A stretch of DNA of 64,000 nucleotides from a virus: positions 22,740-86,739 of IMG/VR virus record IMGVR_UViG_3300021960_000046. The stretch is one strand, 5' to 3'. The translations under genes and the position numbers were made by a program. The notes below the pieces were generated by a model that was given only the letters and a program-made list of their open reading frames with translations, made no database searches and had not been told where the DNA came from. Below, piece after piece: positions 784-53,728 of the stretch (its first letter is position 1; every line of letters begins with the position of its first letter).

Positions 784-1890
784 TCATCTTATAATATCAA
801 TATTACTATCTTTAGTCCATATCTCTAAATCATTTCGAATACGACCTTCTTCTTTTAACTTGTTATATCTTTTTGTGGCTAGTTTTCTCCACCATGAAAC
901 AATGTTATCTACATTGTATTTATCATAGTTTTCAGCCTTCTTTATTTCATCTGTTTTACCATTTACTATATCAACAAAGTTTTCAATACCATAATTTGAA
1001 ACATAATATCTTTTTTGTTCTGTTAAGTTCTTTGCGTTTGCAATAGTCACATCAAAGTTTTTACGGTCATCACCATCTAGTGCTTTCTTTACTAGACCAA
1101 TAATACCTGTAGTCATTTTAAGTTTACGACTTGACGCACCTTCTTTTACAAGTTGTCCTTTGCCAATAATATCCTCAACATAGTCTACCATATCTAAGTA
1201 AGGTTTACCATGCAACATAGGAATAAAATCTGACATTGTATTGCCTTTGTATCTTAGAAACGGTTTCATACCGTCATACATTGAGGCACCTTTTGTATTA
1301 CCATAGAGTGATGTAGTTTCAAACATTACCAAGTTCATATCATATTTTTTGTTTAATCGTTCTCTAACAAAGTGTGAACAACATACCCCAGCAAGAAGTT
1401 TACCACCGAGGTAATTATAACCAAAGGGCTGGCAAGGAACAATAACAAAACCCATAATTGCTGTCTTATTGAAAGTTGTGAGGTTTGGTACACTTCCCAA
1501 TAAATCATTTCTTGGTTTACAATTAATAACTGGACTCCCAAAACGCATAAAGCCCACAAACTTATTAGTATTATTTTCTTTAACTGCAAGTTTCAATGCC
1601 TTTCCTGGAATACTGACCATATTACTATGACTTGAAATCATATTAATACAGGTGTCCCATGTGTAGTTATCTAATTCAACAACTTCTAAATCCATGTCCT
1701 CTGGTGACATAGTAAAGTCACTAAACATCTCGGAATCTAAACCCATACCAGGCAAAGATGTAGGCAGACTATCAATCTGTGCCATCTTTTGGTCACGCAT
1801 GTACTGGTCTATTCTTTCAAACTGACCAAAATAGTCGTTGAAGATAGCTGCGACATGTTGTGCTTGTTCTTTACTTAGGGTCTTCGCCAT
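784..1890 (-). CDS. DUF4338 (DruA-like), putative Mom-like GNAT-fold protein, copy 1
   Basis: VP.QP.GYN..GGKLLA and ETTSLYG...S.Y motifs; paralog of 17375..18679. Confidence 0.65.
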   Translation of the reverse strand: MAKTLSKEQAQHVAAIFNDYFGQFERIDQYMRDQKMAQIDSLPTSLPGMGLDSEMFSDFTMSPEDMDLEVVELDNYTWDTCINMISSHSNMVSIPGKALKLAVKENNTNKFVGFMRFGSPVINCKPRNDLLGSVPNLTTFNKTAIMGFVIVPCQPFGYNYLGGKLLAGVCCSHFVRERLNKKYDMNLVMFETTSLYGNTKGASMYDGMKPFLRYKGNTMSDFIPMLHGKPYLDMVDYVEDIIGKGQLVKEGASSRKLKMTTGIIGLVKKALDGDDRKNFDVTIANAKNLTEQKRYYVSNYGIENFVDIVNGKTDEIKKAENYDKYNVDNIVSWWRKLATKRYNKLKEEGRIRNDLEIWTKDSNIDIIR

Positions 1891-7371: not shown

Positions 7372-7447
7372 TGGTGCCCTCTGACGGAATTGAACCGCCA
7401 ACCTACTGATTACAAATCAGTTGCTCTACCAATTGAGCTAAGAGGGC
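7372..7447 (-). tRNA. tRNA-Thr(UGU), canonical, CCA encoded
   Basis: GCCCTCT acceptor stem, D-loop with GG, anticodon arm ACTGA-TTTGTAA-TCAGT, T-loop TTCAATT, ACCA end. Confidence 0.95.
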
Positions 7448-7452
7448 AAATT

Positions 7453-7527
7453 TGGAGCGGGTGACAGGATTCGCACCTGCGACATTTTCGTTGGCAACGA
7501 AATGCTCTACTCCTGAGCTACACCCGC
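7453..7527 (-). tRNA. tRNA-Gly(GCC), atypical D and T loops
   Basis: GCGGGTG/CACCCGC-TCCA acceptor, anticodon arm TTTCG-TTGCCAA-CGAAA, T-loop TGCGAAT. Confidence 0.9.
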
Positions 7528-7533
7528 TTATAC

Positions 7534-8478
7534 TCATTTAAATTTACAACTCGCCATAATCTCAGTTAGACAAGCAATTAAGTTAATTTCCTGGTCGGCA
7601 ACAAAGGCAGCCTTGTATTGATAACCAGCGACAATTAATATCATCTGAGGTACAGACGAAGCCTCTAACGCATTGGTTAGAACATCATATACACCTCTGA
7701 ATAAAGAAGATGGTTCTTTGTCTAAGTTCTGAACAACCCATTTACGCATATCATTAAATCGTTTCTCTTTTAAAGAAGCGACCAACTCTTTGTTATTGGC
7801 TTCAGATAAACTAAACAAAATACCACTATCAATTTTACCCCTTACAGAATATCTTTGTAGTTCATTTATAGTTCTACGAAAGTCTGGATAGTATTTCTGA
7901 ATTAACTCAGCCAATACTTTAGGGTCATATTCAACCTCTTCTTTCTTTAGAATGTCCTGTAATCTAGTTAGAAGTTGTTTGGCAGTTTTTACTTTCTGGC
8001 CATTAACAATTCTAAAATCAATTACGGTACATCTACTATGTAGAGGTTCAATGATTTTGTTTTTGAAATTACAAGTAAAGATAAATCTACAATTCTTGTA
8101 AAATGTTTCGATAAAATTACGCAAAGCAGGTTGTACGGACTCGGCATTCATATAGTCTGCCTCATCAATAATAACTACTTTGTGGTTTGCCTCTGCCGTT
8201 AGAGAAACGGTTGAAGCAAAGTTCTTAATCTTGTGTCGTAGTGTATCAATTTGACGGCCTTCATCTGAACCGTTAATGATAATATAATCTACGCCTAGTT
8301 GTTCACATAAAGCACGAGCAACGGTAGTCTTACCAGTACCTTGTGTACCTGATAATAGTAAATTTGGTAACTCGCCTTGTTTTAGAAAACTTTTGAAAGT
8401 CTCTTTAGTATCTTCAGCTAAAATACAATCATCAATTGTCTTTGGCCGATACTTTTCTACCCATAAATGGTCTGACAT
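7534..8478 (-). CDS. gp44: clamp loader large subunit (gp44)
   Basis: WVEKYRP, Walker A GTQGTGKT, IIDEAD, PLHSRC. Confidence 0.97.
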   Translation of the reverse strand: MSDHLWVEKYRPKTIDDCILAEDTKETFKSFLKQGELPNLLLSGTQGTGKTTVARALCEQLGVDYIIINGSDEGRQIDTLRHKIKNFASTVSLTAEANHKVVIIDEADYMNAESVQPALRNFIETFYKNCRFIFTCNFKNKIIEPLHSRCTVIDFRIVNGQKVKTAKQLLTRLQDILKKEEVEYDPKVLAELIQKYYPDFRRTINELQRYSVRGKIDSGILFSLSEANNKELVASLKEKRFNDMRKWVVQNLDKEPSSLFRGVYDVLTNALEASSVPQMILIVAGYQYKAAFVADQEINLIACLTEIMASCKFK

Positions 8479-10052: not shown

Positions 10053-10126
10053 TGGAGCGGATGAGTGGTACTGCCCCACTTTCATTTGATTGGAAATCAA
10101 ATATAATACTTTTATACGACATCCGC
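10053..10126 (-). tRNA. tRNA-Gly(UCC), strongly atypical D and T loops
   Basis: GCGGATG/CATCCGC-TCCA acceptor, anticodon arm TTTGA-TTTCCAA-TCAAA; D-loop lacks GG; T-loop GGCAGTA. Confidence 0.82.
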
Positions 10127-15699: not shown

Positions 15700-16479
15700 C
15701 TAATTTATTGTATTTTTTCGCTCAATATCGTCTTCCGAGCAGTCCGTTCCATACTGGATTTCGATAATTTTAAGTGGTATATGTTCTTCATTACATAACT
15801 GGTGCCATTCACCTCTCTCTATATGTAAGTTATCAAACATTTTATACTCACCTAGTAGTTCTAAATCTGTGTTACTATTGATTGTATAGACGGTGGCCAC
15901 ACCTTTACTGATAAACCAATGTTCTGACCTATCTTTATGTTTTTGCATAGATAGTCTTTCGCCAGGCATTACAACTAATTCTTTTACTTTAACTACATTG
16001 AGTTCATTATGTATAACTCTATAATATCCCCACGGTCTTTCGGTCTGGTTTGTAGCCCATTTCTCTAAAATGCTTGATGAGGAGTTACGCTTCTCCGTAC
16101 CTCCTACACCAAAAGCAAAGGTAATCCAGTCATCTGATTGGAAATACTTCTCTTCAGGTATGTTCTCGGCAGTTCTATCACCACCATTGGCAAAGATAAT
16201 GTGTGCTTTAGGGTAAAATCTTTTGACTTTTAGAATACACTCAATGGCCGTACCGTCCCAATCATCAAACGGTATTACATTGTGTACAAACGATAGGTTT
16301 TCTACAACCTTTTCTCGTTCATAGAAAGGCATAAAGTATTTGCCTTTCTTTTCTTTTAACCAATTGTCTGAGTTAAGTCCTACAATCAAATGGTCGCCTA
16401 AGGCGGCGGCACATTTCAGGTACTCTATATGTCCTGAATGTAAAGGGTCAAAACCGCCAGTTGCAATGACTACTTTCAT
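15700..16479 (-). CDS. cytidylyltransferase-like (HxGH) domain fused to a mannose-6-phosphate isomerase type II cupin
   Basis: TGGFDPLHSGH, FANGGDR, NSSS; then RPWGYY, LSMQKH..RSEHW, IIEIQYG..CSEDDIER. Confidence 0.88.
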   Translation of the reverse strand: MKVVIATGGFDPLHSGHIEYLKCAAALGDHLIVGLNSDNWLKEKKGKYFMPFYEREKVVENLSFVHNVIPFDDWDGTAIECILKVKRFYPKAHIIFANGGDRTAENIPEEKYFQSDDWITFAFGVGGTEKRNSSSSILEKWATNQTERPWGYYRVIHNELNVVKVKELVVMPGERLSMQKHKDRSEHWFISKGVATVYTINSNTDLELLGEYKMFDNLHIERGEWHQLCNEEHIPLKIIEIQYGTDCSEDDIERKNTIN

Positions 16480-16799
16480 CTATTGTCACCATTGCCACCG
16501 ATAACACCTCGGTTCATTCGGTCTTGTAATTTAACTATATTGTTGTCAGCAATAGTTTGGAGGTCGCAGCCAATATCATCAGCCAATACAGCGATATACC
16601 ACAGGCAATCGCCAATTTCAGCGGATATCTCTTTACGATAATCTTTATTCTTCTCATATCCATCTCTTATTAATTTTTTAACTTTGTTCGCCACTTCGCC
16701 TGCTTCACCGGCAAGTCCTAACGCTGGATATAAAATCTGGTGTTTCTTGTCGTAGATAGCCGTTGTCTTGGCCATTTCTTGGTACTCATTGAAATTCAT
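16476..16799 (-). CDS. mazG: MazG-like nucleotide pyrophosphohydrolase
   Basis: LGLAGEAGEV...KK..RD...EIGD.LWY. Confidence 0.9.
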   Translation of the reverse strand: MNFNEYQEMAKTTAIYDKKHQILYPALGLAGEAGEVANKVKKLIRDGYEKNKDYRKEISAEIGDCLWYIAVLADDIGCDLQTIADNNIVKLQDRMNRGVIGGNGDNR

Positions 16800-16811
16800 T
16801 TCTATTTAGTC

Positions 16812-17375
16812 CTAATTTGTTTTATACACATAACCCTCAGAAAGACCTAATTCTTTCCATGTACGATTACTTTCTTGTATATTTAAATCCGGATACACGC
16901 CATTGATTTTGTGGTATTCATCAACAAACTCTTTCTCTACCGTGTGAAAATCAATAGGTATCTCCTTCTTGTATTTCTTACCATTGAATGTTGGTATCTC
17001 TACTTCAACAATCGGCAGTAGTAAAAAATAGACTTCTAACCTATTACCAGCAAGCAATTCTTGTTTCATATACTTACAGATTGCATAATTTCTCATACTC
17101 TCTGTCTTGCCAATATCGCCTCTGAAATAAGCCGAGATGGTCGCTTCGATACCGCCTTTGTCTTGCGAGCCACCAATCTTTACTATTTTACTATTGTTAG
17201 TTAAAATGTAAAGTCTTCCTCTTGGATTCTTTCTGTATTCTTTTAAACAAGTGGTGTTTAATGATAACTTATTGTCGTTAAGGAATATCTCACCTAGTTT
17301 GACCCATTGAGATAAATCTAAACCATCAATAGAAGTTACTTCTTTGTAACCTAGCATTTCAGCTATCTTGTTCAT
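16812..17375 (-). CDS. GIY-YIG endonuclease (Hpy188I / T4 EndoII-like)
   Basis: GRLYIL...KIVKIGGS variant of the GIY-YIG hairpin; S.RNY, LEVY, VEKEF..EY...NG.YP.LNIQ C-terminal pattern. Confidence 0.65.
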   Translation of the reverse strand: MNKIAEMLGYKEVTSIDGLDLSQWVKLGEIFLNDNKLSLNTTCLKEYRKNPRGRLYILTNNSKIVKIGGSQDKGGIEATISAYFRGDIGKTESMRNYAICKYMKQELLAGNRLEVYFLLLPIVEVEIPTFNGKKYKKEIPIDFHTVEKEFVDEYHKINGVYPDLNIQESNRTWKELGLSEGYVYKTN

Positions 17376-18679
17376 TATCTTCCTACTTGCGACAGATACT
17401 TAGATTTACATTCTTCCCAACTCATATAGATAATATCATCATAGAAATGGCTTTCGGTTGAAACTCTATCTTGTTTCTTTAAAGACGCCAATCTCTTCTT
17501 AGCGTATTTGTTTTTCCATATCTCTGTTAATGCTTCTACTGAATTGTCAAACTTTCTAACTAACTTGTCTTCTTTAATTTCTTCTCTTAAAAATTCGTTT
17601 GTGTTATTAAATAATTCACCAAAGTAAATACCTCTAGCGTGTTCTGATTTAATTAACTTTTTATCAATACCTAATTTGTTATAGGTAAATGTTAAACTTC
17701 TATTTCTATGGTCTCTTTTATGAGGTTGACCACTATCTTTCTTTGCAACATACCATTCAAAGAATTTATATGTGTGGTTTTTCATCAACCATTGTTGAAT
17801 AAGTTTCTGTGTTGGTTTTTCTGGTTCAAATGAAACTGAACCTGCTGTCCAACCCATTTTCTTCCAACCAAATAATCTATCGTATTGTGATAATGGTATT
17901 TCTTTTGTCTTACCATATAGTGATGTTGTTGTAACACCCACAAGTTTATCTTTGTATTGTGCTTCCCAAGTTTTCTCTACCGTATCTGATAAACATAATA
18001 GAGCAAGTAGTTTACCACCTACTAGATTATAACCTAATGGTTGAATAGGTACAATCGTACTACCAATACAAGTATGATTAATCATTCGTTGAGTTTTAGC
18101 TTCTCGTTCCCAACCAATGTGTTTATCTCTTGGTGTTAAATCTAAGAAGTCTGAGGACATACAAGTTACACCAAGAAATTTGCCTGTCTTCTTATCTCTA
18201 ATTAAAAAGTTTAGATTTCTACCAATGTTACTATTGTTTTTCATTGTAGAAAGGAAAGTTCTTAGACCATTCCAAACGGCAGGACCTTGTGCGTTAGTAG
18301 CCTTAGATAATGTTTCGTTAGTGTCTGTGTAAACTAACTCAGGTTCTAAATCAATATATTCTTCGGGGTCTTCTGGCAACCAGAAGTTATTTTTAATCTC
18401 TTGTAGTAATTGACCTTGTGCTGGGTCTTTTAATGTTTTGCCTGTATCATCAAAAAAACTATTAGTTTCAACCGTAGGATATTTGTGTTGTACTTCACAC
18501 CATTTCTGATACAAAGTATATTCTTTTACATCCATAGCAGAAACAAAGGTCAAGTCTTTAATAACTTGCGCCTTTAATTTTTCTGTATCTACATCTGGCA
18601 CTTTGTCTAATGGATTGTTATCTGACCAACTTTGCCATTGGTCGTCAATCGACATGCCTTTTTTCCACGAATAACTCAT
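17375..18679 (-). CDS. DUF4338 (DruA-like), putative Mom-like GNAT-fold protein, copy 2
   Basis: GRNL.FLIRD..TGKFLG, PRD..IGW, VPIQPLGYN..GGKLLA, TTTSLYG...SQY.RL..WK..G.T.G. Confidence 0.7.
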   Translation of the reverse strand: MSYSWKKGMSIDDQWQSWSDNNPLDKVPDVDTEKLKAQVIKDLTFVSAMDVKEYTLYQKWCEVQHKYPTVETNSFFDDTGKTLKDPAQGQLLQEIKNNFWLPEDPEEYIDLEPELVYTDTNETLSKATNAQGPAVWNGLRTFLSTMKNNSNIGRNLNFLIRDKKTGKFLGVTCMSSDFLDLTPRDKHIGWEREAKTQRMINHTCIGSTIVPIQPLGYNLVGGKLLALLCLSDTVEKTWEAQYKDKLVGVTTTSLYGKTKEIPLSQYDRLFGWKKMGWTAGSVSFEPEKPTQKLIQQWLMKNHTYKFFEWYVAKKDSGQPHKRDHRNRSLTFTYNKLGIDKKLIKSEHARGIYFGELFNNTNEFLREEIKEDKLVRKFDNSVEALTEIWKNKYAKKRLASLKKQDRVSTESHFYDDIIYMSWEECKSKYLSQVGR

Positions 18680-18686
18680 AATGTAT

Positions 18687-18715
18687 ATCCTAAACTAAAA
18701 TTCTTAAAATGTCAA
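18687..18715 (-). promoter_or_regulatory. sigma70-type early promoter giving a near-leaderless mRNA for DUF4338 copy 2
   Basis: TTGACA-N17-TAGGAT; 7 nt separate the -10 box from the ATG. Confidence 0.7.
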
Positions 18716-18718
18716 GTC

Positions 18719-19297
18719 TCAAACGAAATTGCAATTAATTATAATACGGTTCTTATGTTTTGTTGGTGATTGGCCTGTATGCATATTGAGGCCATTGAAT
18801 ATGAATAGTCTGTTTGCCTTAGGAGATACTCTTTTTATCTCTGTAAAATCTTCTGGTTTATATGTGTACATAGGGTCTTCTTCATATTTCTTATCATATA
18901 ATTCATCATAAACAATAGTATCACCATCACTATCATTTACATAATAGATTACTGACCAATGGTTTTTATTAGGCATATCAACATGTGGTTCGTGTGTCTT
19001 TTCTTTGTGGCTGTACATAGTCATATCAGCTCTTGCTCTTATGACTTCTTTTGCACCTATTGTGTCTATACAATCATAGAAGAATGGTGTAAAGAATTTA
19101 CCATATGGAGAATTGTTATCTAACATATGAAAAAAACCATAACTAGTTAGTTCATCTGTTTTTATCATCTCACTAGGCAAAGATATATTACTCTTATAGA
19201 ACCATGGAAACATATCACCTTCGAGTATTCTCTTTATCTCGTTATGATATGTTGGTTTTAAAAAGTTATCTATGACTTTAATATAATTCTTTTCCAT
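18719..19297 (-). CDS. 2OG-Fe(II) oxygenase (HxD)
   Basis: FPWF, HVD, YYVNDSDGDT, H...P....R..IN.N. Confidence 0.82.
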   Translation of the reverse strand: MEKNYIKVIDNFLKPTYHNEIKRILEGDMFPWFYKSNISLPSEMIKTDELTSYGFFHMLDNNSPYGKFFTPFFYDCIDTIGAKEVIRARADMTMYSHKEKTHEPHVDMPNKNHWSVIYYVNDSDGDTIVYDELYDKKYEEDPMYTYKPEDFTEIKRVSPKANRLFIFNGLNMHTGQSPTKHKNRIIINCNFV

Positions 19298-19455
19298 TGT
19301 TTAAATCTTTCAGTATTCTTGGTACCCACATATTGTTCACCTGTTTCCATATCAACTATTTTCCATTTCTCAGGTACTCTTGTAAAGATTTCTAAACTCA
19401 TAGGTCTGTTTAGTACATCTACCTCTTTACCATCTTTAAGCTTGCGTTTTGCCAT
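19270..19455 (-). CDS. small conserved hypothetical protein
   Basis: T..PEKWK.VD.ETG..Y.G motif; overlaps both neighbours. Confidence 0.6.
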   Translation of the reverse strand: MAKRKLKDGKEVDVLNRPMSLEIFTRVPEKWKIVDMETGEQYVGTKNTERFKQWKRIILKS

Positions 19456-19996
19456 ATTTCTTTGCCAGTTCTATCTGTTTCATGGCCTTCTTTCTAGCCA
19501 GGTCTAATTTTAACTTTGACATTCCCTCAGTAAACACTCTACCAATCGTATGGTCATATTCATGTTGGAATATTCTACTCATCATACCATCTAAATGGCC
19601 TTCTTTTAAATCACCATTTTCATCTTCGTATTTTACCACTACTTTTCTTGGTCTTTTAATTGATAAGAATAAGAATGGAAAAGTTAGACAACCTTCTTTA
19701 AACATTACCTGTTCCTCACTTGAAGAAATAATCATAGGATTAAAACAAGTTAATTCTAATCCTCTTTCTATCTGTGGGTGTCCACCTAAAACAAACATAT
19801 TGAAAGGCAATCCAACTTGATTGCATGTTAGACCAATGCCACCATATTTTTTCATAGTTGCAAACATAGCCTCTTTTAATTCGTGTCTATCTTTAAATCC
19901 ATGTTCTGATAACATATCATCTTTAAATGGTGCAATAGCACTCAAAACTCTGGGGTCTGTAGGCGGTATTAACTTTAGTTCTTTTACTTCACTCAT
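19436..19996 (-). CDS. def: peptide deformylase
   Basis: GIGL..NQVG, EGCLT, QHEYDH. Confidence 0.95.
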   Translation of the reverse strand: MSEVKELKLIPPTDPRVLSAIAPFKDDMLSEHGFKDRHELKEAMFATMKKYGGIGLTCNQVGLPFNMFVLGGHPQIERGLELTCFNPMIISSSEEQVMFKEGCLTFPFLFLSIKRPRKVVVKYEDENGDLKEGHLDGMMSRIFQHEYDHTIGRVFTEGMSKLKLDLARKKAMKQIELAKKYGKTQA

Positions 19997-48189: not shown

Positions 48190-48648
48190 TTAGATGTCTG
48201 TTTGGTCTTCCCACTCGTTAGTGCTAGGATTCCATCTATACCAAGTAGTCATTTCACCTGTTTTTTTCGCATACCATCTATTAGTAAGTTCACTCCATTT
48301 CATACCTGAATATGTATTACCATTGCTGGTTGTTTCATATTGATGAGGTGCAACCCAATCGCCAATAGTTTTATCAATTCTCCAACTTGTACAAGGATTG
48401 CCGTTCAAATCTTCATATAAATCTGGATGAAAACATTTTAATTCAGCATTCCAATTACTACCTTTATTGGCTTCTCCATTTACATTACTAAGATTAGCAA
48501 TATAAGTTCCTGCACCAAAAGTTTTAATACAATATTGTTCTACTTTTTCTTGTGTGATAGTACCGGTAGCATCCATACCATAGTTTCTGTTAATAGAAAA
48601 AGTATTTTCTACTTTGTCGTTACTATCTAATTTTGCAACTTCTATCAT
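48190..48648 (-). CDS. Trp-rich partner of Gly-rich fibre protein, copy 3
   Basis: VAKLD..NKV, PC.SW, W.AP, W.E....W; paralog of 50045 and 51892. Confidence 0.6.
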   Translation of the reverse strand: MIEVAKLDSNDKVENTFSINRNYGMDATGTITQEKVEQYCIKTFGAGTYIANLSNVNGEANKGSNWNAELKCFHPDLYEDLNGNPCTSWRIDKTIGDWVAPHQYETTSNGNTYSGMKWSELTNRWYAKKTGEMTTWYRWNPSTNEWEDQTDI

Positions 48649-50036
48649 TAAATTCTACCTTTATATCTGATTACTACTATACCGTCTGCGCCTTTACCGC
48701 CATAGTGAAGTTGTGAAGCGTTACCATCACATCCTCCGCCACCGCCGCCTGTGTGTTCTTCGGCCATTGCACCGCCACCTTGAGCACCGCCACCGTGTCC
48801 GCCACCAGCAGCTGAAGTATGATTGTGACCGGATGCGCCGCCACCACCTGCATACCAAATATCTCTGCCTGTAATATCATTTCTTTCACCTCTACCGCCG
48901 TGGCCACCTTCGTGGTGACCGTAATTGTCAGAACCTCTTTGATGAGCACCACCGCCACCACCGTGTGTATGACTTTCGTGGGTACCACCTCTGTTACCTG
49001 AACCTTGTCCGTTAGCATTTCCATGAGTATGACCATGAGCAGCACCTCCGCCTGAACCACCGTCTCGGCCTCTGGAGTTACTTGAACCTCCTCCGCCACC
49101 GCCACCTGATACCATGCCGTCAAATGTTGATGAACCGCCATCATGTCCGTGTGAGTTAGATGTTCTTTGTGAACCGCCTGTACCAACTACAACTGCGTAA
49201 TTTTGTGCTGTAATGGCATAATTTTTTGAGTTGTTTGCTCTGTATCCACCAGCACCACCGCCACCTGCGTGGTGTGTACCGCCTGAACCGCCACCGCCAA
49301 TGATTAGATATTCAATCTTATCACCTAATACGGAATCTGTACCTAGAGCATGTACTTTAAAAGTACCTGATGTTAAAAACTTGTGAACAACATCATCGCC
49401 GTCTATATAAATTTCTTCAGCGTCTGAGGTAGCAATTGGCCATCTTCGTGAGCCAACATTTTTAACTGCAACACCTCTATTTGTTTGACCGCCTAATTCT
49501 TGGTTATAATCTGATTGAAATTTAGTAACTCTCCAACCACCATCACCTGAAATACCGTCATCAAAAGTAAATTCTACAACTGCACCTTTTTGATGAATAA
49601 CCCAATCGTCTGGTTGTCCTTCAATTAATTGTCCACTTCTATTAATAGTTACAGGATTTTCAGAGAAAGTTCCTCTGTAATCCGAAATCTGAATTTGGTC
49701 ACCTCTTTGAGGAGCTGCTGGAAATGTAATCGTAACAACACCGTTTGTTGTATCTACAAAGTATGCGTTTTCACCTGTAGCAGAAAAGTTTGATGTTCTA
49801 ATGGTATTGTGCGCCATTTTTTCGGCTGCCGTACCTTTAGACATATATCTCCAATAAGTGGAGTTTTCTGCTTCACCTGTCGCTGGTGCTTGATTTGTGT
49901 GACCTAACACACAAATGAATGTACTCGTAATACCTGAATGTTGGTACTGAACGAAATCATCCACTTCATAAGCAACGGAGTTTTGCCATTGCCCCTGATA
50001 AGTTGGTTTTAATTTGCCTAAGTCTATTGCTGCCAT
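48648..50036 (-). CDS. Gly/His-rich tail fibre or adhesin, copy 3
   Basis: IDLGKL N-terminus, YFVDT...TITFP..P..GD domain, H.F...GTF.V, C-terminal polyglycine domain ending GIVVIRY. Confidence 0.75.
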   Translation of the reverse strand: MAAIDLGKLKPTYQGQWQNSVAYEVDDFVQYQHSGITSTFICVLGHTNQAPATGEAENSTYWRYMSKGTAAEKMAHNTIRTSNFSATGENAYFVDTTNGVVTITFPAAPQRGDQIQISDYRGTFSENPVTINRSGQLIEGQPDDWVIHQKGAVVEFTFDDGISGDGGWRVTKFQSDYNQELGGQTNRGVAVKNVGSRRWPIATSDAEEIYIDGDDVVHKFLTSGTFKVHALGTDSVLGDKIEYLIIGGGGSGGTHHAGGGGAGGYRANNSKNYAITAQNYAVVVGTGGSQRTSNSHGHDGGSSTFDGMVSGGGGGGGSSNSRGRDGGSGGGAAHGHTHGNANGQGSGNRGGTHESHTHGGGGGAHQRGSDNYGHHEGGHGGRGERNDITGRDIWYAGGGGASGHNHTSAAGGGHGGGAQGGGAMAEEHTGGGGGGCDGNASQLHYGGKGADGIVVIRYKGRI

Positions 50037-50496: not shown

Positions 50497-51867
50497 TTAT
50501 CTAACCCTATATCTGATTACTACTATACCATCACCGCCGCCGCCACCTCGTCTGTGACCACCAGAAGTACCATCTGTACCTCCGCCACCGCCTCCGGTAC
50601 CGTTAACTCCGTATCCACCGCCTGCTTGGCCTCCACCACCTTCACCGCCTGCTGGGCATGAAGTGTGATTGTGTCCGGCTGCGCCGCCACCACCTGAGTA
50701 GTGTTGTGGAATTCCTGTAATATCGTTTTCGTAGCCTCTGCCACCGTGACCTGCCATGTGGTTACCATAATGGTCTGCACCTGGTTCAGCAGCACCGCCT
50801 CCGCCACCACCATTGTGATGTCCGTTTGAACCGCCTCTATGACCTTGACCTTGTCCGTTTGCGTCACCGTGTCCGCCTGTGTGATTACCACCACCGCCAG
50901 AACCACCTGAACGACCACCGCCGTTTGGATGTCCGCCACCGCCTCCGCCACCTGCACTTGTTAAACCAAATGCCGTAGAAGCAGAACCAGTTTGTCCGTG
51001 TCCGTCACCGCCGTATTGTGAACCGCCGGCACCAACTACGATTGAATATGCTTGAGCAGTTACAGCTTGTGCGAAAGAGTTATTTGCTCTATATCCTCCT
51101 GCACCACCACCTGCGCCATGGTGTGTTCCACCTGAACCACCGCCACCTACAATTAGATACTCGACTACATCGCCTAATGCGGAATCTGAACCTGTTGAAT
51201 GTACGGTAAATGTGCCAGATGTTAAAAACTTATGTACCATATCTCGGCCATCTAAGTAAACTTCTTCGGCATCCGAAGTAGCAACTATATATCTTTTAGA
51301 ACCTAATCCTTGATGTCCTTTTGTTTTTAAACCTGAATTTTCTTCGTTACTATAAGTAACAAATTTCCAACCTTGACCACCTGTACCATTGTATGCTAAT
51401 TCTATAACGGTACCTTTTGCATTTAAAACAAAATCATCAGGTTCGCCTTCAATCAATGAACCGTTACCTGCTAATGTACAAAAATTAGTGTTGAAAGTTT
51501 TTGCGTAATCTATAATTTTTAAATATGTGCCATCACTAGGTGCTGATGGTAATGTAACCGTAATTGCACCACTTGAAGTATCTACAAAGTAAGCACTTGA
51601 ACCTGAAGCTGTAAAATCTGCTGTTGAAACTGATTGATAAGCAATAGCAATCTGGTCAGTACCTTTTGCCATAAATTTCCAGTAAGTAGAATTTTCTGTT
51701 CCACCAGTTGCTGGAATTTGGCCTGTACTATTTGTAACAGCAATAAATGTACTTAAAGTACCACCATCTGAATATTGTACGATATCGTCTTTCTCGTAAG
51801 CAGTGCCAGACGACCAAGTACCTTTGGGCGTTAATGCTAATTTTCCTAAATCAATTTGTATTGCCAT
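50497..51867 (-). CDS. Gly/His-rich tail fibre or adhesin, copy 2
   Basis: Same architecture as 48648..50036. Confidence 0.75.
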   Translation of the reverse strand: MAIQIDLGKLALTPKGTWSSGTAYEKDDIVQYSDGGTLSTFIAVTNSTGQIPATGGTENSTYWKFMAKGTDQIAIAYQSVSTADFTASGSSAYFVDTSSGAITVTLPSAPSDGTYLKIIDYAKTFNTNFCTLAGNGSLIEGEPDDFVLNAKGTVIELAYNGTGGQGWKFVTYSNEENSGLKTKGHQGLGSKRYIVATSDAEEVYLDGRDMVHKFLTSGTFTVHSTGSDSALGDVVEYLIVGGGGSGGTHHGAGGGAGGYRANNSFAQAVTAQAYSIVVGAGGSQYGGDGHGQTGSASTAFGLTSAGGGGGGGHPNGGGRSGGSGGGGNHTGGHGDANGQGQGHRGGSNGHHNGGGGGGAAEPGADHYGNHMAGHGGRGYENDITGIPQHYSGGGGAAGHNHTSCPAGGEGGGGQAGGGYGVNGTGGGGGGTDGTSGGHRRGGGGGDGIVVIRYRVR

Positions 51868-52357: not shown

Positions 52358-53728
52358 TTACTTAACCTTATACCTAATTACTACTAGTCCTGAACCGCCA
52401 GCGCCACCATAGTTTGCTTGACCTGTAGAACCATCTGTTCCACCGCCACCACTTCCACTAAATGGTTCTGCACTACCGCCATTTCCTGAACCGCCGCCAC
52501 CTAAGCCGCCGCCACCAGGACCTCCGTGTTGATGTGTTCCTGCACCACCGCCTCCACAATACCAACGATTTTCGCCTGTAATGTCTGAAGCTGTACCGGA
52601 TCCACCGTTACCACCCATGTGATGTCCGTATTGGTCACCACCTCTAGTGTATGAACCGCCACCACCGCCATGAGTATGACTTTCGTGGTTACCACCTCTG
52701 TTACCTGAACCTTGTCCGTTTGCGTTACCATGTGTGTGATTGTGTCCCGAACCACCACCTGAAGCACCATCTCGGCCTCTTCCAGCATTCGAACCACCAC
52801 CGCCACCGCCACCTGATGTTAAACCAAATGCACTTGAAGAACCTCCGTCATTACCTGTAGTGTTAGAGTATCTTCTATCACCACCAGCACCTACGGTAAT
52901 TGTATATGCTTGTGGCGTAACTGCTTGGTTATAAGCTGCGTTATCTCTGAAACCACCAGCACCACCGCCACCAGCATGGTGTGAACCACCTGAAGCGCCA
53001 CCGCCAACAATTAAATATCTTACATTTGAACCGAAAACGGAATCTGAACCTACTGAATGAACGGTAAATGTTCCTGAACTTAAAAACTTGTGTACCATGT
53101 AATCGCCATCTAAGTAGACCTCTTCTGCGTCTGAGGTTGCGTTAATCCATCTTTTTGAACCAACACCTGGCGATACTGCTTTATCTTTATTATTAATTTC
53201 GTCTGAGTTAAATGAAGTAATCTTCCAACCATTTGAACCTGAAACTGAACTATCATATGTGAAGTACACATGTGTACCTCTACTATTTAAAACCCAATCA
53301 TCCGGTTCACCTTCAATAGTGTTACCGTTTGCAGCTAATGTTACTTGATTAATATGGAATGTTCTTGCTCTATCAATAAATGCAATTTGGTCACCGTTAC
53401 TTGGTGAGGCAGGCATTGTAATTGTAATTGCGCCTGCTGTTGTATCGACAAAATAACCAGTTGAACCTGAAGCTGTAAAACTTGATGTTTCTGGAGCACC
53501 CCATGTCATTGATACTGCGTCTGTACCTTTTGCCATTAATGCCCAATAAGTTGCATTTGGATTACCAGCAGTTGAAGGCACCTGATTTGTACTATTTGCT
53601 ATAGCAATGTATGTACTTGTAACACCTGTATCAGTATATGTAACCATATCGTCAACTTCATAAGCTGTACCGCCTACATAAGCGCCTCGATATTTTACTT
53701 TTAATTTTCCTAAATCTATTGTTGCCAT
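52358..53728 (-). CDS. Gly/His-rich tail fibre or adhesin, copy 1
   Basis: Same architecture as 48648..50036. Confidence 0.75.
   Translation of the reverse strand: MATIDLGKLKVKYRGAYVGGTAYEVDDMVTYTDTGVTSTYIAIANSTNQVPSTAGNPNATYWALMAKGTDAVSMTWGAPETSSFTASGSTGYFVDTTAGAITITMPASPSNGDQIAFIDRARTFHINQVTLAANGNTIEGEPDDWVLNSRGTHVYFTYDSSVSGSNGWKITSFNSDEINNKDKAVSPGVGSKRWINATSDAEEVYLDGDYMVHKFLSSGTFTVHSVGSDSVFGSNVRYLIVGGGASGGSHHAGGGGAGGFRDNAAYNQAVTPQAYTITVGAGGDRRYSNTTGNDGGSSSAFGLTSGGGGGGGSNAGRGRDGASGGGSGHNHTHGNANGQGSGNRGGNHESHTHGGGGGSYTRGGDQYGHHMGGNGGSGTASDITGENRWYCGGGGAGTHQHGGPGGGGLGGGGSGNGGSAEPFSGSGGGGTDGSTGQANYGGAGGSGLVVIRYKVK

Follow-up and report, generated by a model that had tools for sequence, protein, structure and literature searches.

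A covarying A18/G55 elbow in a glycine tRNA of a Mosig-like marine phage and its possible functions

The glycine tRNA gene and its setting

The contact between G18 and pseudouridine 55 is taught as a near-universal one in tRNA. A gene of tRNA-Gly(GCC) located on the minus strand of a viral DNA, at positions 7453–7527, has A18 and G55 instead, and this raises the question of whether such a gene is a product of decay, a working decoder with an elbow of another type or a carrier of glycine for some purpose other than translation. The last opinion was expressed in an earlier note on this DNA, in which the tRNA was likened to the staphylococcal non-proteinogenic (NP) tRNA-Gly and was considered as charged but diverted from ribosomes.

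The window, that is the whole stretch of DNA analysed (64,000 nucleotides), belongs to an IMG/VR record of 86.7 kb, which is rated 47% complete and has a G+C content of about 34%; all 72 open reading frames (ORFs) retained in the window are on the minus strand. Using ARAGORN, tRNA-Gly(GCC), consisting of 75 nt with encoded CCA, was found there along with tRNA-Thr(UGU) (7372–7447, minus strand), separated from it by 5 nt. Both genes were also recognized by the Rfam model RF00005, having a gathering score of 29, with 66.5 bits (E 1.4e-14) for tRNA-Gly(GCC) and 75.7 bits for tRNA-Thr, and the minimum-free-energy fold of each is a cloverleaf. The gene at 7453–7527 is a genuine tRNA. Directly upstream of the pair lies the gene of a gp44-type clamp-loader subunit (7534–8478, minus strand), which also served as the anchor for collecting related loci. 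Its product has 82.2% amino acid identity to that of the Pelagibacter phage Mosig EXVC030M and about 63% to the cyanophage and HTVC008M homologues, and on the basis of these identities the phage can be regarded as a Mosig-like marine phage of T4 type. Mosig has no tRNA after gp44 and no tRNA-Gly, its tRNAs being canonical tRNAs of Pro, Arg and Leu only. A blastn search with tRNA-Gly(GCC) against a collection of cultured phages gave no close relative, and the best matches examined, from DSS3_MAL1 and Atu_ph07, are canonical tRNA-Gly with GG and TTC.

Direct reading of the minus strand gave the acceptor pairs G1-C72, C2-G71 and G3-C70, followed by U73 and the encoded CCA, a 7-nt anticodon loop UUGCCAA with U33 and A37, and a T arm GCAGG / UGCGAAU / CCUGU, in which the T-stem pairs G49-U65, C50-G64 and A51-U63 precede the sequence G53-U54-G55-C56. 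The identity set of GlyRS includes G1-C72, C2-G71, G3-C70, U73, C35 and C36, and every one of these determinants is present. In the D-loop AGGAGUA, both the Rfam alignment and our own alignment place A at position 18 and G at position 19, the GG of the loop falling at positions 15–16. The pair G19-C56 is intact, and the 18-55 contact alone is altered (A-G). The adjoining tRNA-Thr, which was used as an internal control, has a canonical elbow of GG and UUC (D-loop AAUUGGUA, T-loop UUCAAUU).

Most of what the earlier note had read in these genes, namely GUGC in place of GTTC in a tRNA-Gly(GCC), the T arm with G55 and A51-U63, the intact GlyRS determinants with CCA and the fully canonical tRNA-Thr, was thus confirmed. 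The statement that the D-loop lacks the usual GG was correct with respect to AGGAGUA and A18, but G19 is still there, and it is not the case that both guanines have been lost.

Another odd glycine tRNA of the window, tRNA-Gly(UCC), is encoded at 10053–10126 on the minus strand and ends with U73-CCA. It has 43.7 bits by Rfam and a cloverleaf fold with a z of -3.19, and genes of this type recur in eight related gp44 loci and in 11 loci collected around DruA-family genes. Its D-loop is AAAAGUA with A18-G19, and its T-loop is GGCAGUA with G54, G55, C56 and G58. ARAGORN missed this gene, a circumstance that bears on tRNA gene finders. The GGCAG T-loop resembles the GGAAG type, which is known from rRNA according to a preprint (bioRxiv 10.1101/2022.12.26.521914), and may fold in a similar way.

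Covariation of positions 18 and 55

Eighty related loci were collected via the clamp loader, and tRNA-Gly was sought in them by a structure-aware pattern. Sixteen tRNA-Gly genes were found in 15 of these loci; 15 of the genes have A18 together with G55, and one is canonical. Because the combination recurs in nearly all the tRNA-Gly of these loci, it is not a matter of chance. The 15 genes differ in their anticodons (GCC, UCC and ACC) as well as in their T-loops, represented by UGCGAAU, UGCGAUU, GGCAGUA, AGCGUUA and UGCGUUA.

A covariation table was compiled for 573 unique tRNAs detected by ARAGORN in all the collected loci, in which the non-glycine tRNAs had never been a criterion of selection. 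Among these non-glycine tRNAs, A18/G55 was found in 45, A18/U55 in 5, G18/G55 in 1 and G18/U55 in 390 (Fisher p of about 1e-54), i.e., A18 and G55 covary almost perfectly. Unique phage tRNAs of isotypes other than glycine account for 21 cases of A18/G55. In a cruder tally, 19 tRNAs appeared to combine GG with G55, and all of them have this GG at positions 15–16, like the tRNA-Gly(GCC) studied.

Viral contigs were additionally scanned with patterns built on the tRNA-Gly frame, where 5' GCG at the right distance served as the sign of a real tRNA. The A18/G55 pattern gave at least 119 stretches, and 94 of 130 among the matches listed were tRNA-like. The complete scan for A18/U55 yielded 105 matches, with 5' GCG in 7 and a real tRNA in 1; in the scan for G18/G55, among the matches listed (115), 5' GCG was present in 8, and tRNA in 0. 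The A18/G55 elbow is a covarying pair and not a sign of decay. A full-text literature search gave no description of A18/G55 covariation in phage or bacterial tRNAs, and a term search revealed no mention of G55 or A18 in two reviews (PMC7912444, PMC4810234).

The structural sense of this replacement can be discussed with the help of the above-mentioned preprint (bioRxiv 10.1101/2022.12.26.521914). Residue 18 of a tRNA is inserted between residues 57 and 58, with a single hydrogen bond to 55. The usual T-loop of non-tRNA molecules is described there as UGNRA, with an adenosine that intercalates between positions 4 and 5 and bonds the sugar edge of G at position 2. The sequence U54-G55-C56-G57-A58 of tRNA-Gly(GCC) fits this generic motif of riboswitches and other RNAs, and A18, located at the site expected for the intercalating base, covaries with the G at position 2. 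The difference is that, in the same source, the UGNRA motif is described outside tRNA, whereas tRNA T-loops have U at position 2.

The G18-pseudouridine 55 contact would then be replaced by a covarying A18-G55 contact, in which A18 would intercalate in the UGCGA T-loop with a hydrogen bond to the sugar edge of G55, and the pair G19-C56, forming the flat outer face of the elbow, would be retained. Since the T-loop corresponds to generic UGNRA with an intercalated adenosine, the A18/G55 elbow should fold in this manner and the L-shape should be kept.

A G at position 55 leaves no uridine for conversion to pseudouridine, just as A18 rules out a modified G18; as a consequence of the swap, tRNA-Gly(GCC) has neither pseudouridine 55 nor a modified G18. 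TruB acts on U55 and TrmH on G18, and the A18/G55 swap bears on the range of substrates of both enzymes and also on tRNA engineering. The matched replacement of the two residues represents a recurrent natural solution, found in phage tRNAs as well as in single-copy cellular tRNAs.

Probable decoding of glycine codons

A scan of prokaryote genomes for this elbow gave at least 120 stretches, and most of the matches listed belonged to tRNA-Gly(GCC) in Patescibacteria or to tRNA-Gly(UCC) in Streptomyces. One complete Saccharibacteria chromosome of 843,892 bp contains 45 tRNAs, both by Rfam and by ARAGORN, including three tRNA-Gly. Two of them, with the anticodons UCC and CCC, are canonical, whereas the only GCC one has the A18/G55 elbow, its D-loop AGGAGUA and T-loop UGCGAAU being identical to the phage loops. 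As the sole tRNA-Gly(GCC) of a complete genome, it must read GGU and GGC, and the elbow is therefore compatible with decoding; the presence of this elbow in such a tRNA also means that a noncanonical 18-55 contact does not decide the function. The cellular tRNA is like that of the phage in its length class, acceptor set and anticodon loop UUGCCAA as well. It is unlike the phage tRNA in having G51-C63 instead of A51-U63, and, in contrast to this cellular elongator, the phage gene is an accessory one that exists alongside the tRNAs of the host, and DruA-family proteins are encoded in the same phage genome.

In a sample of 201 Patescibacteria genomes, tRNA-Gly(GCC) with G55 was found in 10, and in none of these 10 did the pattern reveal a U55 version, the single match being not a tRNA. 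The assumption that A18/G55 is the standard form of tRNA-Gly(GCC) in Patescibacteria was rejected on these counts, which make the elbow a minority solution there. In two phage contigs rich in tRNA genes (111.6 and 137.1 kb), the A18/G55 combination is present in 9 and 12 tRNAs, respectively, which belong to near-complete decoding sets, and the isotypes concerned are Met, His, Thr, Gly, Ile, Arg, Lys, Leu, Cys, Tyr, Gln and Asp. So many isotypes in near-complete sets mean that the elbow is neither specific to glycine nor incompatible with decoding.

The codon usage of the phage corresponds to this anticodon. In the 72 ORFs, GGT occurs 962 times, GGC 300, GGA 223 and GGG 23 times, and the GCC anticodon serves 1262 of the 1508 glycine codons (84%). 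Three ORFs of the minus strand (48648–50036, 50497–51867 and 52358–53728) consist of 22–26% glycine, encoded mostly by GGU and GGC according to the codon count, and this region at 48.6–53.7 kb likely creates a demand for GGY decoding.

In our opinion, tRNA-Gly(GCC) is a working decoder with an alternative A18-G55 elbow, and a probability of about 0.55 may be given to this interpretation. The host GlyRS would glycylate this tRNA, which would decode GGU and GGC on the ribosome and add to the host supply for the 84% of GGY codons. What is directly observed is the sequence itself, the covarying positions, a single cellular decoder with identical loops and the agreement with codon usage, and from these data we infer folding, charging, EF-Tu binding and decoding. 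In the earlier note, decoding of the Gly-rich fibre genes was mentioned as an alternative; decoding is now the favoured function.

Some observations speak against the role of a decoder. Among the tRNAs of this lineage of phages, almost only those for glycine have the odd elbow, the neighbouring tRNA-Thr being canonical. The pair A51-U63 is a weak one belonging to the staphylococcal NP set. The genome also encodes two DruA-family proteins with a GNAT fold, and odd tRNA-Gly are located near such genes in related phages. Furthermore, extra GGY decoding is not essential to such phages, because Mosig lacks any tRNA-Gly.

Possible glycine donation, possible escape and the staphylococcal comparison

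The DruA-family proteins lead to another possible function. One of them, a DruA/DUF4338-family protein of 434 aa, is encoded at 17375–18679 on the minus strand (PF14236, 71.9 bits) and has a GNAT-fold core at approximately residues 106–378. Its diverged paralogue of 368 aa (784–1890, minus strand) adjoins the DNA polymerase gene and gives 27.3 bits with PF14236 against a cut-off of 27. The ORF at 16812–17375, next to the first of these genes, matched no Pfam family at E <= 0.01. The Mom protein of phage Mu, with the catalytic residues R111 and S124, uses Gly-tRNA-Gly as the source of the glycine that it places on N6 of dA in double-stranded DNA (PMC13219725). By analogy, the odd tRNA-Gly of the window, at 7453–7527 and 10053–10126, might be dedicated or dual-use glycyl carriers that are charged by the host GlyRS and serve mainly the two DruA/DUF4338 proteins, which in this case would aminoacylate DNA or another target of the phage. 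The rebuilt elbows, UGCGA with A18 and GGCAG with A18, would mark a glycyl pool apart from the translational one or would fit the enzyme. Such a function, including a dual role, seems to us less likely than decoding, although it is the main competing one, and it is more probable for the companion with the anticodon UCC or ACC than for tRNA-Gly(GCC).

The structure of the 434-aa protein was modelled from 61 diverse homologues with a pLDDT of 93.9, and alignment of the model by VIA-align put Mom (PDB 8bv8_B) at the top, with Z 9.6 and an rmsd of 4.2 over 173 aligned residues. SpeG and other acetyltransferases, however, come within one Z unit of this match (GNATs at Z 9.1), which makes it a tie. 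The Foldseek comparison of the model with PDB gave weak GNAT matches, none of them at E <= 0.001; hhalign of the DruA profile against Mu Mom gave a probability of 1.2%, which is not significant; nothing meaningful was obtained by comparing the protein or its profile with PDB sequences, and the Pfam family Mom (PF25680) was absent at E <= 0.01 from the 47%-complete record. A whole-word search of a preprint on YprA and Druantia (10.1101/2025.09.15.676423) found no passage with DruA, GNAT or Mom. The protein is predicted to have a GNAT fold, the model resembling Mom about as closely as other GNATs, and it may be considered as a candidate user of Gly-tRNA.

The genomic distribution of these genes argues for their connection with glycine tRNAs, as does the precedent of Mom. 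PF14236 was found in 28 of 93 viral records with odd tRNA-Gly (13/50 and 15/43) and in 0 of 48 unrelated viral records, drawn from the chance matches of another scan, although counts of this kind are confounded by the common descent of marine T4-like phages. There are 15 loci in which an odd tRNA-Gly, for the most part 69 nt long and with a shortened D arm, follows a DruA-family ORF of the same strand 10–140 nt downstream, and nine more in which the distance is 375–1152 nt; the odd tRNA-Gly near DruA belong to 4 of the 11 clusters formed by DruA at 70% identity. A survey anchored on DruA covered 80 loci. Downstream sequence of 7.3 kb or more was available for 16 close relatives, and in 13 of the 16 an odd tRNA-Gly was found on the same strand 5.7–7.9 kb downstream. 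DruA-family genes of related phages have glycine tRNA genes as companions. Among the 80 loci, ARAGORN found no isotype besides the odd tRNA-Gly. The anticodon of the 13 tRNAs is ACC in seven and UCC in six, as if position 34 were weakly constrained.

Other data are unfavourable to glycine donation, above all by tRNA-Gly(GCC). The nearest DruA gene is 5.5 kb away from this tRNA, across the DNA polymerase and other core replication genes, and the GCC type is present in only 2 of the 16 close relatives. Mosig keeps the DruA gene (82% identity) without any tRNA-Gly; conversely, DruA is missing from some records that carry odd tRNA-Gly, among them those of the two tRNA-rich phages and of a provirus with a completeness rating of 100%. 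Unlike the pairing of DruA with particular tRNA-Gly proposed here, Mom needs no dedicated tRNA, because all three tRNA-Gly isoacceptors of Escherichia coli support it (PMC13219725).

In this phage lineage, the swap is found mainly in glycine tRNAs whose genes accompany those of DruA-family GNAT proteins, and this gives a testable lead to enzymes that, like Mom, might depend on aminoacyl-tRNA for modification and would form a second such family; the phages concerned infect some of the most abundant bacteria of the ocean. If the tRNAs are really glycyl carriers, a tRNA-dependent modification pathway with private tRNAs would be at work in a large and abundant group of marine T4-like phages.

It is also conceivable, albeit unlikely, that the A18/G55 swap hides a phage tRNA that still decodes from agents recognizing the canonical elbow with G18 and the T-pseudouridine-C sequence. 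T-loop nucleases exist, and the agent might be a tRNA nuclease of the host or of a rival, a T-loop toxin or the phage's own attack on host tRNAs. An escape of this kind would explain why the elbow differs and can be combined with decoding or with glycine donation. It agrees with the loss of pseudouridine 55 and modified G18 and with the occurrence of the swap in phage tRNAs of many isotypes, both in 21 unique non-glycine tRNAs and in the two phages with 9 and 12 A18/G55 tRNAs per genome. On the other hand, the window contains no identified candidate for a nuclease or toxin, single-copy cellular tRNAs, for which escape is unnecessary, have this swap too, and in this phage it is limited to glycine tRNAs and does not extend to tRNA-Thr.

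The comparison with staphylococci, from which the earlier note proceeded, concerns tRNAs that bring glycine to Fem-type transferases for peptidoglycan bridges, off the ribosome. According to PMC7826273, the staphylococcal NP tRNA-Gly have TGC or TGT in the T-loop, the UCC anticodon and the T-stem pairs A49-U65, U50-A64 and A51-U63, constituting a weak EF-Tu set, whereas the proteinogenic P1 and P2 of S. aureus have G49-U65, C50-G64 or U50-A64, and G51-C63; PMC4574755 gives U18U19 or C18U19 for the NP tRNAs. The phage tRNA-Gly(GCC) shares with NP1–NP3 the glycine identity set, G55, with the consequent lack of pseudouridine 55, and A51-U63. It differs from them at positions 18-19, where it has A18-G19 and the NP tRNAs lose both elbow pairs, as well as at 49-65 (G49-U65 instead of A49-U65), at 50-64 (C50-G64 instead of U50-A64) and in the anticodon (GCC instead of UCC). 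Two of the three pairs relevant to EF-Tu, 49-65 and 50-64, are equal to the proteinogenic pairs of S. aureus. Thus, of the four sequence features of the staphylococcal class, G55 is present, and the residues 18-19, the T-stem set and the anticodon are of another kind. No FemAB (PF02388), Acetyltransf_6 (PF13480) or Leu/Phe-transferase (PF03588) domain was found in the 86.7-kb record, 47% complete. The idea of a staphylococcal-type tRNA diverted from ribosomes is not supported for this gene; besides the sequence differences, the lack of Fem-type domains in this incomplete record and the presence of the same loops in the sole GCC decoder of Saccharibacteria speak against it, and a use off the ribosome would more likely involve another acceptor enzyme, of the DruA family. 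With only G55 and A51-U63 in common with the NP tRNAs, a cell-wall function of the staphylococcal type is extremely improbable for this tRNA, encoded by a phage whose nearest cultured relative infects Pelagibacter, a Gram-negative bacterium without glycine bridges.

A second unusual glycine tRNA in the window

A further tRNA-Gly, with the anticodon UCC, is located on the minus strand at 10053-10126, where it is detected by Rfam at 43.7 bits, although ARAGORN makes no call at this site. Its D-loop is AAAAGUA and its T-loop is GGCAGUA, in which G54 and G58 replace U54 and A58. This type of tRNA is kept across many relatives, and the substitutions in its T-stem are compensatory.

Elbow variants in phages and cellular genomes

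The A18/G55 elbow, which replaces the canonical G18/U55 pair, was found in many isotypes in two GC-rich phage contigs bearing about 40 tRNAs apiece, namely in 9 tRNAs of G002 (locus L561) and 12 of G003 (L562-L563). No DruA gene was found in the record of either phage.

In cellular genomes, the same elbow occurs in tRNA-Gly(UCC) of Streptomyces (L425, L426, L433 and about 40 further loci among the matches listed), where, judging from the sequences, a bulged U seems to be needed for T-arm pairing. It also occurs in tRNA-Gly(GCC) on contigs of 38-42% G+C labelled as Gammaproteobacteria or Pseudomonadales MAGs (L429, L460, L469, L471, L478), within a Gly-Phe-Val-Leu tRNA cluster resembling that of the Saccharibacteria genome. 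These labels may be wrong, or this tRNA-Gly(GCC) may be distributed beyond Patescibacteria.

Another variant retains GG in its D-loop and places C at 55, in T-loops such as UCCGAAU. It was observed in tRNA-Lys, tRNA-Phe and some further tRNAs, making up 21 unique cases among 573 unique ARAGORN tRNAs from the collected loci; examples are L551 and L556 in the Saccharibacteria chromosome G001 and L160 and L267 in phages. In the tRNA-Pro of L287 and L295 and the tRNA-Cys of L160, GA or AU replaces the D-loop GG and occurs together with the T-loop UUUGAGU or UGAAAGU, and this co-occurrence suggests a possible covariation of the second elbow pair, 19-56, as A19-U56 or U19-A56.

Neighbourhoods of DruA-family genes

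The larger DruA gene of the window lies in a minus-strand neighbourhood (16476-19996) in which Pfam searches identified MazG (16476-16799), a 2OG-Fe(II) oxygenase (18719-19297) and a peptide deformylase (19436-19996), while no Pfam family was found for the ORF at 16812-17375.

In relatives (L090 287-430, L144, L150, L159, L162 and others), DruA-family ORFs are followed 59-140 nt downstream, on the same strand, by 69-nt glycine-like tRNAs, frequently in tandem pairs, whose D arm is truncated and whose anticodon loops are atypical. Among close relatives within the DruA-anchored loci L571-L628, the syntenic odd tRNA-Gly carries ACC (n=7) or UCC (n=6) in the anticodon loop. According to PMC7566577, A34 within a four-codon box is unusual in bacteria-type decoding. 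The ACC/UCC switch is accompanied by compensating substitutions in the anticodon stem.
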